Assembly: GCA_963830365.1 (NCBI GenBank)
Contig: CAWHMU010000046.1
Span: 64,001-128,000, forward strand
DNA from: an uncultured Chlamydiae bacterium
GTDB lineage: Bacteria > Chlamydiota > Chlamydiia > Chlamydiales > Parachlamydiaceae
Direction of reading: 5' to 3'
DNA length: 64,000 nucleotides
Numbering within the stretch: the first letter of the stretch is position 1; every line of letters starts with the position of its first letter. Position numbers and translations under genes: made by a program. Shown one piece after another: positions 41,263-48,153 of the stretch. The notes under the pieces are model-generated. The model was not told the origin of the DNA and did not search any database. It saw only the letters and a program-made list of their open reading frames with translations.

Positions 41263-42030
41263 ATGAGATATTATATTTTAGTGAGTATGGCTTTATATAG
41301 CTGGCCCGGTTTTGCCGCATCCCCCTCCAGAGTGATTCCAGATGAGTTCTATGATCAATTTACGCTGAATGGAACAATCCCAATTCAATATACATATTTA
41401 GACGATTCTTATGCAGCTACAACCCCAAAACACTATGCTAAACAAGAAATTGATCAATGCATTGGAAAAATCCACAGAAAGGCATGTGGACATTACGGCG
41501 TGACGGATACATGGCTGTACCAGGCTTTAGAAAAGTATCCAATCATCGGGAAAGAAGTCGCCATTGTCGGCTCGGCAACACCTTGGTATGAAAGCGTGGT
41601 CATCGCCTACGGTGGCTATCCCACAACCATAGAATACAATAGTATTGTCACAGATGATCCACGGCTGACAATATTGACTGTTGATGAATATATAAGTCAT
41701 CCAAAGAAATTTGATGTCGTACTTTCTATTTCAAGCATCGAGCATGATGGTCTAGGAAGATATGGAGACCCTATTAATCCAAATGCCGATCTTGAATTCA
41801 TGAAAATGGCAAAAAATGTCTTGCTCAAAGAGTCCGGTCATATGATCCTGGCAGTGCCTATCGGTCAGGACGTAATGAGTTGGAATGCGCATAGAATTTA
41901 TGGACCAATCAGATTTCCTAAGTTAATCCAGGGCTGGACCATCCAAGACTCTTTTGGCTTCACTGAAGCCGAATTTAATGGGGCTTTTGGCAACTATGGC
42001 TATCAACCTATTTTCTATTTAGCGCCATAA
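41263..42030 (+). CDS. DUF268-like methyltransferase-fold protein with signal-peptide-like start
   Basis: VGS..PWYE, SSIEHDGLGRYGDPINP, AVPIGQD...WNAHRIYG..R. Confidence 0.75.
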   Translation: MRYYILVSMALYSWPGFAASPSRVIPDEFYDQFTLNGTIPIQYTYLDDSYAATTPKHYAKQEIDQCIGKIHRKACGHYGVTDTWLYQALEKYPIIGKEVAIVGSATPWYESVVIAYGGYPTTIEYNSIVTDDPRLTILTVDEYISHPKKFDVVLSISSIEHDGLGRYGDPINPNADLEFMKMAKNVLLKESGHMILAVPIGQDVMSWNAHRIYGPIRFPKLIQGWTIQDSFGFTEAEFNGAFGNYGYQPIFYLAP

Positions 42031-42174
42031 AAGACACGACCATCCTAAAAGCTTCCCTAATGGCGTCAGGCAGGCCTTGGCAATTACCATTCACATAGCC
42101 GGCATCGGATTTAAGAGGGCTCGGATTTAAAAGGGCTTAGATTGGCCACCACACCACAGGCCTTTGATAATGAA

Positions 42175-42196
42175 GCGGCGGGGCTGGCCCCGCCGC
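42175..42196. terminator. GC hairpin between convergent genes
   Basis: gcggcgggg-ctgg-ccccgccgc. Confidence 0.55.
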
Positions 42197-42220
42197 ACTT
42201 ATGACAACTTCTTGAACGTA

Positions 42221-42745
42221 TTAGTCAAGCTGAACAATATTTATGGAAACGCTGGTATTTTGCAAAGTGCCGGCTCCGTCAACGGTACCTAGCAGGGCAA
42301 TTGGCGACAAGGTTGTATTGACCAATTGGATTGTATCTCCAGCAGAAAGAGAAACAATCACGTGGCCCGATGTGCTCAAGGTGATTAAATTATCAGGGGT
42401 ATCAGTACCGCTATGCGAAGCCACAACGCTTCCACCAATAAGGACGGAATTACGTAGAAGACCTACACTCCAAGGGCCTGGTATCTGAGTGCCGTCAGTC
42501 GAGAGGCCGCCTACCACATTAAAACCGATTTCATAATTACCAGCCGTAATGATCGTAATCGTTTGTCTATCAGCAGAAATTGAAATGTTATTTACCGAGT
42601 TGTTGAGGTCAAAGGTTGCAACCGCTTCTGAAGCCAGAGGTTGAGTGCTGATGCTGTAAAAGTTACCAAATGAAGTAATAGCAAATGCCGACGTGCTAAC
42701 GGCAAGCATTAAAAAGGTAACACTGCTAAGCAGGATTTTTTTCAT
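42221..42745 (-). CDS. Secreted BclA-C-terminal/C1q-like beta-sandwich protein
   Basis: Signal peptide ending AFA; ITIITAGNYEIGF and IVSLSAGDTIQLVN motifs; no collagen repeats. Confidence 0.65.
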   Translation of the reverse strand: MKKILLSSVTFLMLAVSTSAFAITSFGNFYSISTQPLASEAVATFDLNNSVNNISISADRQTITIITAGNYEIGFNVVGGLSTDGTQIPGPWSVGLLRNSVLIGGSVVASHSGTDTPDNLITLSTSGHVIVSLSAGDTIQLVNTTLSPIALLGTVDGAGTLQNTSVSINIVQLD

Positions 42746-42989
42746 AACGTCTCCTTATGATTGTTGTTCAAGATTCGCCAGCCATTCCAACCTGAATTTT
42801 GGCTTCAAAATGGATGGACTAGGTAAAACAGATGTGTAAATACAAACTTTATATTTGTCAACATTTTCAACATGAGTGTATGCTAAACAACGGGGATTTT
42901 CATCTAAAGGCACTGTGTTATAATGCCCTTATGTCAAGATAGGGTGAAATTTTTCGGATAAACGATAGTTTTAAAAGGGATGTTTACCA

Positions 42990-45572: not shown

Positions 45573-46571
45573 ATGAAAAACCTGCTCATCTTTTTCTTTT
45601 TTTTCGCGTCCCTATATGGGGAGGATACAAAGAAGCAACGTGTAGATCTTGCCTCCTACTGTTATAAACTTTTGCCGATCGAGCAACTGGCTGCCCGGTA
45701 TCCGGAAATATGCCCTATCGATGCATATCCGATGCAGTTTAAGCGTATCCGGGAAGACTATGATTTAATAGCTTCCTATGGCATCTATGAGTATGTTAAA
45801 AATTTCGCTGGCGATGACGCGGATTTGCGGAAAATCATCTTTTTTGATTATTGCCTGGATCCACAGATTTATGCCTTACCCTCTTCAAAAATGGTGCTTT
45901 TCAAATGGGAAGCCATCAAGATCGCCTCCTATTTGTATGACCCCTACGCGCTGGTCTACACGATTGACGACGACCTCGTCGACGGCCAAAAGTTTTTCAA
46001 ATTCTATTACCCAGCTCTTCTGCCCATGCTCGATGACCGCCCTTCTTTTCAGGATAAGAAACTGTGCACCATGATTGTTTCAAATTGGACTGCCGAAAGG
46101 ATCGCTATAGTAGATTTTTTCGAAATGAAACCGGCCGGAGAATTTGAATTCTACGGCCATCCTACAGAAAAGATTATTGCCAGCAAGCTGTATAACGGCC
46201 CCATTCCCGGTTATTATTCAGGGACAGAAAAGCTCGCCAGACTTAAAAACTATCGTTTCTGCCTCTGCTTTGAAAACACACATACGACGAAAGGCTACAT
46301 CACCGAGAAAATTTTCGGCTGCTTTGCCGCCGGCTGTGTGCCCATCTATTGGGGACCTGAGAATATTGAAATGTATATTCCAAAGAATTGCTTTATCGAC
46401 TATCGGGACTTCCAAAGCAATGAGGAGCTATATCAATATATTAAAGCACTGCCACAAAGCACTTACGATGATTATATAGAAAATATTAGGCTTTTTCTGC
46501 AGAGCGAAGCTGCCCAAGTTTTTTCGCCTGAATATTTTGACAAAATCCTCTACCAGGCCGCCAGCCGCTAA
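45573..46571 (+). CDS. Alpha-1,3-fucosyltransferase-like (GT10)
   Basis: YRFCLCFEN....GYITEKIF.CF.AGCVPIYWG..NI..YIP...FID.RDF signature. Confidence 0.88.
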   Translation: MKNLLIFFFFFASLYGEDTKKQRVDLASYCYKLLPIEQLAARYPEICPIDAYPMQFKRIREDYDLIASYGIYEYVKNFAGDDADLRKIIFFDYCLDPQIYALPSSKMVLFKWEAIKIASYLYDPYALVYTIDDDLVDGQKFFKFYYPALLPMLDDRPSFQDKKLCTMIVSNWTAERIAIVDFFEMKPAGEFEFYGHPTEKIIASKLYNGPIPGYYSGTEKLARLKNYRFCLCFENTHTTKGYITEKIFGCFAAGCVPIYWGPENIEMYIPKNCFIDYRDFQSNEELYQYIKALPQSTYDDYIENIRLFLQSEAAQVFSPEYFDKILYQAASR

Positions 46572-46572
46572 C

Positions 46573-47412
46573 TCAATCGTGGCTCATCAAGCCAAAATAA
46601 TCCCATGGAAATGAGTCCATTAAAGGCCCTATGTCGATACGAGCAGGCTCTTCACCACCCATCTGCAAAGCCTGTTGCACCGACGTGGCATACCCGAAGT
46701 TCGGCCTGGCAGTCGCTTCATAGTAGTCCTGGTATTTCAGTAACGGCTCTATCCATGTCATTTTAAGTAGTCGCGCAGGTATACCGAACGATTCTGCCAC
46801 GATGATACCGTGTAATGAACTGGAAATTACCAGCCGGCTTTGAAGCATCCTCTTTACTATTTCATTCCATGGTTGGGTTGGCAAAACAACGTTCTTGTAA
46901 GATGTAAAGCATGGTATTTCACCAATATTTGGGATGATGATGTAATCATAAAGAGGCTCCTCTTTTTCGAATTCAGGAAATAAGTGCCCCATTAACACCG
47001 CAGGATCCCCGTATACTTCAGGACAGGCGATGCCCTTTTTAAGCAGAAAATCGCGGGTTCTTGGTCCTCTGACAGCCCTGACATCCAGCTGATGGAACCT
47101 ATTTTCCTGGAGGGGATTTTCCCGAAAGCCTGAACCCCAAATGACATCATCATCCCTGGCGAAATGAAGGATAGAGCCTACCGCCAGTAAAATTTTCCCG
47201 TCGGATTCCAAAGAGCGATATTTAACGGGACGACCTAAAATCCTTTCTACGATGACCCTTGATAGATCATCGCCGAAATTAGCGCCTTGAGAACTGTTCC
47301 ACCAAAACATTGTGTCTTGTGCCGAGTAACACATAGAACCCGCCGATGCCGTGAGCAAGACAAACAAAACGCCAATATACTTTCCTATGCAGCTAGTTCT
47401 AATGGCTCTCAC
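46573..47412 (-). CDS. Polysaccharide pyruvyltransferase-like protein
   Basis: NFGDDLS, VGSIL, IWGSG, AVRGPRT, YGDPA, SSSLHGIIVAESFGIP. Confidence 0.85.
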   Translation of the reverse strand: MRAIRTSCIGKYIGVLFVLLTASAGSMCYSAQDTMFWWNSSQGANFGDDLSRVIVERILGRPVKYRSLESDGKILLAVGSILHFARDDDVIWGSGFRENPLQENRFHQLDVRAVRGPRTRDFLLKKGIACPEVYGDPAVLMGHLFPEFEKEEPLYDYIIIPNIGEIPCFTSYKNVVLPTQPWNEIVKRMLQSRLVISSSLHGIIVAESFGIPARLLKMTWIEPLLKYQDYYEATARPNFGYATSVQQALQMGGEEPARIDIGPLMDSFPWDYFGLMSHD

Positions 47413-47418
47413 CGTTGT

Positions 47419-48153
47419 TTAGAGGGTTTTTGTAATTGACAAACGGTTTGCATTCTGGATGCATTGGCCATTTTTCCGAAAGAGCATATAGGGGGCGGAA
47501 GGTGAAAATGCCGATATCACGTCAGCCCTTTCCAAAAGAAAGACCAGCGCCTGCTGCATGCCATACCAATTTGGATCATTAAGCAGGATATAGCCGCCAT
47601 CTTTTATTTTTGGAAAGTAACTGACAATATCATGGTAGGCATATTCCGCGTTGTGGTTTCCGTCGAAGTGAATAAAATCAACCGTGTCGTCATCAAAAAG
47701 CTGCACAGCCTTTTGGGAAGCCTGCCTTAGCACTTTGCAATGCTTGTCAAGTTCATGCTGATGGATCAAGTCCAAAGTCTGATGGTAGAAATGATTGAAA
47801 TCCAGCCTGCTCCACCACTCAAAATTAGGGTCGGCAGTGTTAAAGCCGGCTATCGCTTCGAGGGCATCCCAGGCATCAATACCAAAGACTTGTCCCGAGC
47901 CCTGATACGACAAAGCTTTGGCTATGGGATACAGGGACATACCAGAAAAAACGCCAATTTCAAGGCAGCATTCACTTCTATTTTCTTTAATGAGATCCAT
48001 CATCAAAAGGGCTTTTTCTCTAGAACACCAGCCCGGCACAGTAGACATTTTCAAAACGGTTTCTTCTTTAAAAAGCAGCCATGGATCTTGCGCCAAGAGC
48101 GGAGATATGGCGATGGTGAAAACGACCAAAAGTAGTAATATCGTTTTGTTCAA
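47419..48153 (-). CDS. Class I SAM methyltransferase (Methyltransf_24-like)
   Basis: GWC...K, LEIGVFSG.S, GIDAW, DFIHFDGNH, GGYILLND. Confidence 0.8.
   Translation of the reverse strand: MNKTILLLLVVFTIAISPLLAQDPWLLFKEETVLKMSTVPGWCSREKALLMMDLIKENRSECCLEIGVFSGMSLYPIAKALSYQGSGQVFGIDAWDALEAIAGFNTADPNFEWWSRLDFNHFYHQTLDLIHQHELDKHCKVLRQASQKAVQLFDDDTVDFIHFDGNHNAEYAYHDIVSYFPKIKDGGYILLNDPNWYGMQQALVFLLERADVISAFSPSAPYMLFRKNGQCIQNANRLSITKTL

Follow-up and report, generated by a model that had tools for sequence, protein, structure and literature searches.

In bacteria, reactions that consume nucleotide sugars, SAM and PEP are held to be cytoplasmic, with lipid-linked donors used outside. The glycan enzymes of the Golgi lumen, which also include FkbM-type and DUF268 proteins and S. 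pombe Pvg1p, are type II anchored and receive their donors through transporters specific to the organelle. Gmd, Fcl and GME of eukaryotes are cytosolic. Viral glycosylation kits (GT11, FkbM, Gmd) use host cytosolic donors. A nucleotide-sugar-dependent transferase that operates outside the bacterium has been described for the glycogen pathway of C. trachomatis. GlgA is delivered by type III secretion, carries no cleavable leader and makes one storage polymer. It uses host UDP-glucose that is imported into the inclusion via SLC35D2 (PMC4829429). Proteins with a cleavable Sec leader also travel from the periplasm to the inclusion lumen and on to the host cytosol in this phylum. The examples are CPAF, CT311, CT795, Ptr and HtrA (PMC6717882). 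These are proteases or proteins of unknown function, and need no cytosolic cofactor.

The glycan kit of the environmental chlamydia discussed here differs from the glycogen pathway in its Sec-type leaders, in its more than ten enzyme families, and in comprising both tailoring and donor-converting enzymes. It shares families and folds with eukaryotic Golgi enzymes (FUT9, plant FUT1, FUT8, POFUT), and the predicted topology is alike, with the catalytic domain outside the cytoplasm and using nucleotide sugars, SAM or PEP, but no conserved transporter partner was found for it among the EamA loci surveyed. GT10, GT11, FkbM, pyruvyltransferase and Gmd/Fcl are common to the kit and to ordinary bacterial LPS and capsule pathways. 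In the latter, however, the enzymes are leaderless and clustered with exporters, whereas the chlamydial enzymes have leaders and no exporter. In phages and giant viruses, these families likewise occur in mosaic islands (PHROG matches: GT11, FkbM and MT24), but the viral GT11 proteins are leaderless in 61 of 62 cases, since the host cytoplasm is where they are synthesised. Our literature search did not find a description of an exported glycan kit of this type.

The window, a stretch of 64,000 nucleotides from a genome that is 82% complete (labelled G000), contains six ORFs for glycan-tailoring enzymes, all above the Pfam cut-off for the families to which an earlier sequence-only reading had assigned them (Table 1). 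That reading had also remarked on the lack of a flippase, polymerase or nucleotide-sugar gene in the cluster, and Pfam profiles run over the locus ORFs indeed detected none. With no exporter among these ORFs, the locus is not of the Wzx/Wzy or Wzm/Wzt type. The autotransporter gene lies 34 bp upstream of the MT24-pyruvyltransferase gene pair, in the same orientation; its product and the BclA_C-like protein are both candidate acceptors. The sequence-only reading had overlooked these two predicted-exported non-enzymes, of which the autotransporter lies just beyond the span it described. Across genomes, conservation of gene order is limited to pairs, and the MT24-pyruvyltransferase pair recurs in G078, with leaders on both proteins.

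Table 1. Features of the glycan-enzyme locus; positions are those of the window.
Feature	Position	Strand	Profile match	Leader
DUF268 protein	41263-42030	+	Pfam PF03269, E 5e-26	about residues 1-20 (41263-41322)
Terminator-like hairpin, near the BclA_C-like ORF	42175-42196			
Small predicted-exported protein, non-enzyme, with weak BclA C-terminal-like domain	42221-42745	-	PF18573, E 7e-7, below cut-off	present
GT11-family glycosyltransferase, TTG start	42990-43937	+	PF01531, E 1.9e-20	20-26 residues
FkbM-family SAM methyltransferase	44359-45141	+	PF05050; TIGR01444 above cut-off	18 residues (44359-44412)
Near-perfect palindromic dispersed repeat, 162 bp	45186-45347			
GT10-family alpha-1,3/4-fucosyltransferase-like enzyme	45573-46571	+	PF00852, E 6.3e-20	16 residues (45573-45620)
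Polysaccharide pyruvyltransferase-family enzyme (PS_pyruv_trans), GTG start	46573-47412	-	PF04230, E 3.1e-14	about 24-30 residues
Methyltransf_24 (MT24) SAM methyltransferase, TTG start	47419-48153	-	PF13578, E 3.3e-19	21 residues (48091-48153)
Autotransporter	48188-50038	-	PF03797, E 1.8e-40	present

Leaders were scored with a home-made signal-peptide rule. Its background ranges from 10 to 17%, with 300 of the 1808 ORFs of at least 140 aa flagged in this genome, and, in bacteria other than chlamydiae, 39 of 383 ORFs for soluble proteins next to gmd. All six window enzymes pass the rule, in agreement with the basic-hydrophobic leaders of the sequence-only reading, whose three quoted leader sequences were exact. 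The Sec/SPI features, namely a positive n-region, an uncharged h-region and small residues at -3 and -1, are present in 6/6 by this rule, and the leaders resemble those of BamA, Skp and binding proteins of the same genome. The mean n-region charge is +1.5 for the six window enzymes, +1.5 for 22 further glycan enzymes and +1.6 for 11 known exported proteins; the mean charge after the h-region is -1.3, -1.2 and -1.7, respectively. The leader hydrophobicity of the glycan enzymes also matches that of the exported proteins, whereas 13 cytoplasmic controls differ in the leader features (1/13 flagged). Two alternatives had been named at the outset, N-out anchors and true starts downstream of the leaders. 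The former disagrees with the positive n-regions (6/6) and the neutral or acidic character of the ten residues that follow the hydrophobic stretch (6/6), the latter with the in-frame leaders of most homologues and with a DUF268 domain that begins only at about residue 20. Judging from the DUF268, viral GT11 and control Gmd proteins, the leader lies wholly ahead of the folded domain, whose fold does not depend on it. On sequence grounds, the window leaders are likely to be Sec signal peptides.

The AF2 model of the DUF268 protein has a mean pLDDT of 93, with residues 1-20 at 50-59. Its Foldseek matches are SAM methyltransferases (best E 1.3e-5, TM about 0.45), and the model predicts a class I SAM-dependent methyltransferase fold; family profiles place the FkbM and Methyltransf_24 enzymes in the same class. 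Among 150 DUF268 representatives, 47 are leaderless and start where residue ~20 of the window protein aligns. The FkbM protein probably starts at the ATG at 44359, located 8 nt after GGAG, rather than at the TTG at 44296. All eight FkbM proteins of this genome have leaders; among chlamydial FkbM ORFs, the leader is missing from 11 of 23.

The GT11 protein has a PF01531 domain, a GxLGNQ motif and a fucosyltransferase fold, as its model matches FUT1, FUT8, NodZ and POFUT (best E 8.8e-9). The canonical motif of the family is HxRRxD. At the HxRRG position the window protein reads HVRTF, and the first Arg is invariant in the alignment (31/31). HxRT is found in at least 17 of 28 chlamydial GT11 proteins, compared to HxRRG in 46 of 62 viral ones. 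Due to the altered motif, donor and activity are uncertain. Leaders are present on 21/28 chlamydial but only 1/62 viral GT11 proteins, 61 of which begin at most 16 residues before the first motif.

The GT10 protein aligns with FUT9 and FucT across the FEN...YITEK...GxVPI donor-binding motif, as expected for the family, and its donor may be host GDP-fucose or GDP-L-galactose. The putative pyruvyltransferase, which would catalyse PEP-dependent ketal transfer, scores above the PF04230 cut-off; in sequence, it matches neither Pvg1p nor a chain of the PDB. Leaders are carried by 80/120 GT10 and 92/120 pyruvyltransferase homologues. The n-region is more positive than the downstream segment in 68/80 and 90/92 of these, respectively, and negative in none, and the residue at -1 is mostly Ala, Ser or Gly. 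On the insertion-energy scale applied, 19-residue membrane insertion is favourable for only 1/80 and 3/92 leaders. In about 11 of 30 chlamydial GT10 proteins, judged by eye, a longer segment that resembles an anchor precedes basic residues, so that cleavage and topology are not uniform.

The sequence-only reading treated the leaders as a trait of six genes. This stands for the locus but is too narrow, as the trait extends throughout the genome and across the phylum. About 32 glycan enzymes with leaders are encoded in this genome, among them a UDP-sugar dehydrogenase and an epimerase that matches GDP-mannose 3,5-epimerase (GME, E 4e-92); two close GME homologues in G201 are leaderless. GDP-L-galactose, the predicted product of GME, is a possible donor for GT10 and GT11 in this genome. 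Of 53 chlamydial Gmd ORFs, 8 carry a leader (7 by the rule, 1 by eye) versus 0/80 in other bacteria, where the protein starts at the first strand, and Fcl has one in three chlamydial genomes versus 0/50 controls. The eight Gmd proteins with leaders form one side of a branch that spans seven families (SH-aLRT 91, quick tree), and largely keep the catalytic motifs. A gmd gene was not found in the 82% complete genome studied here, and is missing from 22 of 39 GT10-bearing genomes. ManC has no match in 5/8 genomes with leader-bearing Gmd, compared to 3/44 with leaderless Gmd. The argument is weakened by a leaderless sugar-phosphate nucleotidyltransferase in this genome, with mannose-1-phosphate guanylyltransferase as best, sub-cut-off match, because the ManC model would miss enzymes of this type. 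With this nucleotidyltransferase and its own MetK, the bacterium is not forced to obtain donors from the host. Separately from the kit, the genome also encodes a conventional pathway whose enzymes lack leaders, and which includes Wzm/Wzt, Wza and a transferase of the WcaJ type (C36:70-84 kb).

On balance, the data tilt modestly towards a genome-wide kit of Sec-leader enzymes that works outside the cytoplasm, in the periplasm or inclusion space, on likely host donors, and most likely decorates the bacterium's own surface. The chances seem about even that it amounts to a complete Leloir pathway outside the cytoplasm, with dozens of Sec-exported transferases (methyl-, pyruvyl- and sulfotransferases among them) and the donor-making enzymes included, which would make it a host-fed bacterial "Golgi" for Lewis/H/ABO-like or eukaryote-style coats. 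The enzyme families, intact motifs, leaders and leader conservation are directly visible. The leader-bearing enzymes would then be exported by Sec and cleaved, and SAM, PEP and nucleotide sugars would reach the periplasm or inclusion space, because chlamydiae draw host metabolites across that compartment. Passage of SAM through the inclusion membrane is expected (PMC3104491). However, with the 520 Da inclusion cut-off cited in the same paper, GDP-sugars and NADP(H) cannot diffuse freely, which counts against host donors. Exported Gmd, Fcl, GME, GalE-like enzyme and UDP-sugar dehydrogenase would convert host GDP-mannose and UDP-glucose on site, and in this genome GME would yield GDP-L-galactose. 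In the last and least supported step, outer-membrane proteins, autotransporters or exported polysaccharide would serve as acceptors for a variable, eukaryote-like coat. The original proposal, in which enzymes for fucosylation, methylation and pyruvylation make up an exported kit, is strengthened and extended by the conserved leaders and by the donor-making enzymes with leaders, which fit host donors, while export itself is what we infer. Its further suggestions, a host secretory compartment, camouflage and host-glycan editing, are guesses.

Other readings of the leaders have to be considered. The rate at which the rule flags ORFs could suggest chance or annotation artefacts, but this is effectively refuted. 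The six enzymes, the BclA_C-like protein and the autotransporter form a run of eight consecutive flagged ORFs, a length that was reached in 0/2000 flag shuffles, more than 100 homologues keep the leaders without stops, and leaders are absent from 80/80 control Gmd and 61/62 viral GT11 proteins. It is also very unlikely that the enzymes belong to an ordinary surface-glycan pathway of the cytoplasm, with leaders that hold them on the inner side of the inner membrane or are skipped because translation starts further downstream. Ordinary bacteria have all these cofactors in the cytoplasm, the anchor-like GT10 subset would suit tethering, and in the pyruvyltransferase an in-frame Met marks the domain start, from which several database homologues are called. 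Yet this Met is not kept in homologues, and positive n-regions with neutral or acidic downstream residues predict an N-in/C-out orientation by the positive-inside rule. Favourable insertion energies are as rare as stated above, and an anchor offers no evident gain to soluble enzymes like Gmd. Moreover, the clusters lack an exporter, whereas the exporter-linked cluster of the genome is leaderless.

If the enzymes do leave the cytoplasm, their donors could still be the bacterium's own, with cytoplasm-made SAM, PEP and nucleotide sugars exported to periplasmic enzymes by DMT/EamA-type transporters. Apart from MetK, the genome encodes three EamA proteins, one of them in a co-oriented run, with two leader-bearing genes on one side and a leaderless NDP-sugar synthesis cluster on the other (C35:50-67 kb). 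In G112, a leaderless ManC is located 5 kb from a leader-bearing Gmd, and the chlamydial EamA protein CTL843 carries SAM both ways (PMC3104491). We nevertheless regard a self-sufficient pathway as distinctly unlikely. Homologues of the EamA protein in the run have a glycosyltransferase or methyltransferase neighbour (within about 1.5 kb on each side) in 0/19 other loci, a search of 29 genomes from the same family found no such homologue, and cytoplasmic donor synthesis would make the export of Gmd, Fcl and GME hard to explain. Alternatively, type II secretion or vesicles might pass the enzymes as Sec cargo to the inclusion lumen or host cytosol, for action as effectors on host or inclusion-membrane glycans and proteins. 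The C. trachomatis proteins CPAF, CT311, CT795, Ptr and HtrA are secreted in this way (PMC6717882), GspE is found in 18/18 high-quality genomes of the same family, and the host cytosol would be the easiest supply of NADP(H) and GDP-mannose for Gmd, Fcl and GME. The leader-bearing kit also holds families that are characteristic of the Golgi in eukaryotes (GT6, GT90, GT92, GT47/RXYLT1-like, sulfotransferases, NodZ/FUT8-like). However, type II cargo is not recognisable from sequence, GspE was not found in the 82% complete genome, and the clusters often adjoin autotransporters and outer-membrane proteins of the bacterium itself. A multi-step, highly variable kit would also be better matched to a surface that varies than to a host target that does not, and effector function appears unlikely overall.

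Should the kit indeed decorate the bacterial surface from outside the cytoplasm, a phylum-wide, multi-family exported pathway would break the cytoplasm-only rule, and an intracellular bacterium would have a working metabolic compartment in its periplasm or vacuole. Symbionts of protists and animals would then have an unstudied, variable glycan coat. This coat is apparently absent from a small-genome family (f4, likely Chlamydiaceae), in which GT10, GT11, FkbM and gmd were not found. DUF268 would gain a function based on its predicted fold, and the kit would offer soluble, export-adapted fucosyl- and methyltransferases, as far as can be predicted. The palindromic repeat between the FkbM and GT10 genes lies outside the enzyme kit. 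It has a fold z-score of -5.25, with 0/200 shuffles equally good, and five further long copies elsewhere in the genome.

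The six glycan-tailoring ORFs lie where the sequence-only reading had placed them, and each scores above the Pfam threshold of its family: DUF268, GT11, FkbM, GT10, pyruvyltransferase (PS_pyruv_trans) and Methyltransf_24 (MT24). The starts of five of the six are preceded by purine-rich stretches, and the pyruvyltransferase begins with GTG, 6 nt past the MT24 stop. Two other genes among or next to the six ORFs encode an autotransporter and a small BclA_C-like protein that is exported. Named homologues come from Chlamydiae, Rhabdochlamydiaceae and Parachlamydiaceae, and the source genome has Pom porins and three strong matches to nucleotide transporters, all of which points to an environmental chlamydia; plasmid and viral sequences searched with BamA and PRPP synthetase did not help to place it. 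As had been claimed, Pfam profiles find no flippase, polymerase or nucleotide-sugar gene among the ORFs of the locus, and the cluster is not an ordinary Wzx/Wzy or Wzm/Wzt locus. A separate leaderless pathway elsewhere in the source genome (G000; 2.73 Mb, 82% complete; the window is C46:64001-128000) comprises GT2, GT4, an aminotransferase, RfbA/B and Wzm/Wzt, and Wza and a WcaJ-type transferase are also present; its GT4 is flagged by the signal-peptide rule used here, but on its first strand.

The basic-hydrophobic leaders, which resemble Sec signal peptides, are borne out: all six proteins are flagged by a home-made rule, which asks for a basic n-region, a hydrophobic window free of charges, small residues at -3 and -1, and a polar start of the mature part. 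As background, this rule flags 300 of 1808 ORFs in G000 and, in other bacteria, 39 of 383 soluble ORFs next to gmd. Eight flagged ORFs follow one another at the locus, a run that was reached in 0/2000 shuffles. In n-region charge, downstream charge and hydrophobicity, the leaders of the six, like those of 22 additional glycan enzymes, are similar to 11 known exported G000 proteins, including BamA, Skp, binding proteins, porins and the autotransporter. The 13 cytoplasmic controls, one of them flagged, differ from the leaders in such charge and hydrophobicity features. Among 120 homologues each, a leader is flagged in 80 for GT10 and 92 for the pyruvyltransferase, and most of the unflagged sequences either come from gene models cut short or show a leader by eye. 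In phylum genome samples, the rule flags 23/30 GT10, 21/28 GT11 and 12/23 FkbM proteins (ORFs recovered from 30 loci). The trait, as predicted from sequence, is real, conserved and far beyond chance. That the leaders are an artefact is highly improbable. It is also improbable, if less so, that they face the cytoplasm or are bypassed. None of the flagged GT10 and pyruvyltransferase leaders has a negative n-region, and insertion as a 19-residue helix is predicted for only 1/80 and 3/92 of them, respectively. By rough odds, the leaders are very probably true export signals, and the enzymes probably act outside the cytoplasm.

The leader is an add-on ahead of an intact domain, because the viral GT11 proteins (1 of 62 flagged, from 78 control loci) begin directly at the domain in 61 cases, the AF2 model of the DUF268 protein is confident from residue 21 onward, and 150 distant DUF268 representatives include 16 with a leader and 47 starting at about residue 20 (in 67 the domain is internal, and 20 are unclear). 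The same model predicts a class I SAM methyltransferase fold, which gives a fold-based predicted function to a family without one in its name. GT10 aligns with FUT9 and FucT over the whole donor motif, and the predicted GT11 fold matches FUT1, FUT8, NodZ and POFUT. FkbM scores above the TIGR01444 cut-off. Sequence searches of the PDB brought no useful match to the pyruvyltransferase, GT11 or FkbM; those to MT24 were weak and to O-methyltransferases. In the GT11 of the window the second motif is HVRTF, and its first Arg is the same in 31/31 aligned sequences. Leader-bearing chlamydial GT11 proteins (window and loci L060-L089) mostly have HxRT[Y/F] where viral homologues have HxRRG (46/62 copies), which may be a sign of an altered donor. 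The single clearly leaderless chlamydial GT11 in the alignment (L066) has HVRRGD.

About 32 glycan enzymes with leaders are encoded in G000: the six of the window, the 22 compared above, two GT92, a GT2 and a second RXYLT1-like protein. They include all eight FkbM proteins and two donor-making enzymes, a UDP-glucose/GDP-mannose dehydrogenase-family protein and a GDP-mannose 3,5-epimerase (GME; E 4e-92 to the plant enzyme, motifs kept). Ten further leader-bearing or neighbouring proteins of G000 were left unnamed by PHROGs and NCBIfam. The split GT11 gene listed in the table adjoins leader-bearing DUF6492 and RXYLT1-like genes and a Pom porin. Related clusters in the family reshuffle the same enzyme families and add GT6, GT25, GT92, NodZ-like and DUF1796 proteins; GT90 and sulfotransferases occur in other clusters. 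No conserved gene order was found beyond pairs. With GT6, and a leader-bearing NAD-dependent epimerase in G112, the enzyme sets of genomes G112 and G162 could in principle make blood-group-like epitopes. Leader-bearing sulfotransferases of PAPS-dependent families are found in like clusters (L219 and L220, genomes G112 and G134). Since leader-bearing DUF1796 proteins recur inside glycan clusters (L224, L306, L312), a role in glycan work is suggested, rather than the peptidase function of the Pfam name. In family f4 (1.0-1.3 Mb; from this size likely Chlamydiaceae), GT10 (0/26), FkbM (0/27) and gmd (0/26) are missing, and one sub-cut-off GT11 match was seen among 27.

Coordinates of features in the window, in G000 and in related genomes
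Location	Feature	Observation
Window 41263-48153	Six glycan-tailoring ORFs	
Window 42990-43937	GT11	Leader-bearing
Window 45186-45347	162-bp near-perfect palindrome	TATA at flanks
Window 50226-50333, 51792-51859	Rfam miRNA-hairpin matches	Sub-threshold
Window 7617-8876, 16889-18689, 52224-53621	Group II intron reverse transcriptase, ISL3 and two IS110 transposases	
C35:50-67 kb of G000 (L009:3604-19978)	Leaderless NDP-sugar cluster	Nucleotidyltransferase, PfkB/cytidylyltransferase, dehydratases, TPP and transketolase-like enzymes
C16:8524-9499 of G000 (L013:3525-4500)	Second GT11 gene	Split over two frames
L218:3454-8241 (G112), L308:1859-9686 (G162)	GT6 (ABO-transferase family)	Leader-bearing; neighbours GT11, GT2, GT92 or DUF268
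L306:6761-8758 (G158)	Acetyl-CoA synthetase-like protein	Inside leader-bearing glycan cluster; N-terminus leader-like by eye, unflagged by rule

Donor synthesis itself appears to carry the trait. A leader is present in 8 of 53 chlamydial Gmd ORFs (seven by rule, one by eye) versus none at 80 gmd loci of named other bacteria. The eight proteins, from seven families, fall on one side of a branch with SH-aLRT 91 in a quick tree that took in 40 of the 80 controls, and largely keep the catalytic motifs. Fcl has a leader in three of these genomes, versus 0/50 controls, and GME in 5/14 matches among 251 genomes. Genome G201 has two GME of the leader-bearing clade (L413, L421; 63-67% identity) that start at the first strand; one of the genes has a stop in the region corresponding to the leader, which can therefore be lost. 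ManC is absent from the matches in 5/8 leader-Gmd genomes versus 3/44 leaderless-Gmd genomes; since kin are not independent, no test statistic is given, and over-reading is discouraged by the ManC model missing stand-alone pyrophosphorylases and by G112 having a leaderless ManC beside its leader-Gmd. Among GT10 genomes, 22/39 are without gmd. Searches of G000 (82% complete) turned up no orthologue of gmd, fcl or manC; its one stand-alone pyrophosphorylase candidate and its MetK warn against over-reading host donor supply.

If exported by Sec, the enzymes would be in the periplasm, a space through which chlamydiae take in host metabolites, so that donors would be at hand. For this reason, we lean slightly towards an exported, host-fed kit that would decorate, most likely, the bacterium's own envelope, in keeping with the fucosylation, methylation and pyruvylation outside the bacterial cytoplasm proposed from sequence. 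The weak links are the acceptor and the origin of the donors. According to PMC3104491, SAM should be able to pass the inclusion membrane, with uptake by an EamA-type carrier, and PMC4829429 describes host UDP-glucose pumped into the inclusion and used there by secreted GlgA. It is unlikely, at perhaps one chance in a handful, that the enzymes are host-directed effectors. Type II secretion can pass Sec cargo onward (PMC6717882); GspE occurs in 18/18 high-quality genomes of the family and was not found in G000 (82% complete). Still less likely is that periplasmic enzymes draw on donors made by the bacterium itself and brought out by a DMT carrier. The candidate EamA, which is co-oriented with the C35 NDP-sugar cluster and two leader-bearing unknown genes, has no glycan-enzyme neighbours at 19 other loci, and gene neighbours thus give no support to a conserved donor exporter.

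The host-fed kit, as predicted here, would resemble Golgi glycosylation in topology and enzyme families, but lacks an anchored-enzyme-plus-transporter set. It would share donor use outside the bacterium with the GlgA system, but not a type III route. It belongs to neither, and donor synthesis itself is apparently exported. Full-text searches, mostly judged on title or the start of the abstract, with poor coverage of subscription journals, yielded no paper that describes glycan enzymes with signal peptides in chlamydiae or Dependentiae, and a mention in a genome paper or its tables may have been missed. Passages of PMC2824669 and PMC3417536 do not mention the trait, which is apparently undescribed so far.

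Promoter and terminator scans did no better than chance, and Rfam gave the sub-threshold hairpin matches, which are probably more palindromic repeats, and nothing else, the 162-bp palindrome included. This palindrome resembles a miniature mobile element or a REP-like one. Five more long copies are present in G000 (C9, C23, C33, C36, C48; 77-83% identity), and family members show many matches of 100-170 bp.
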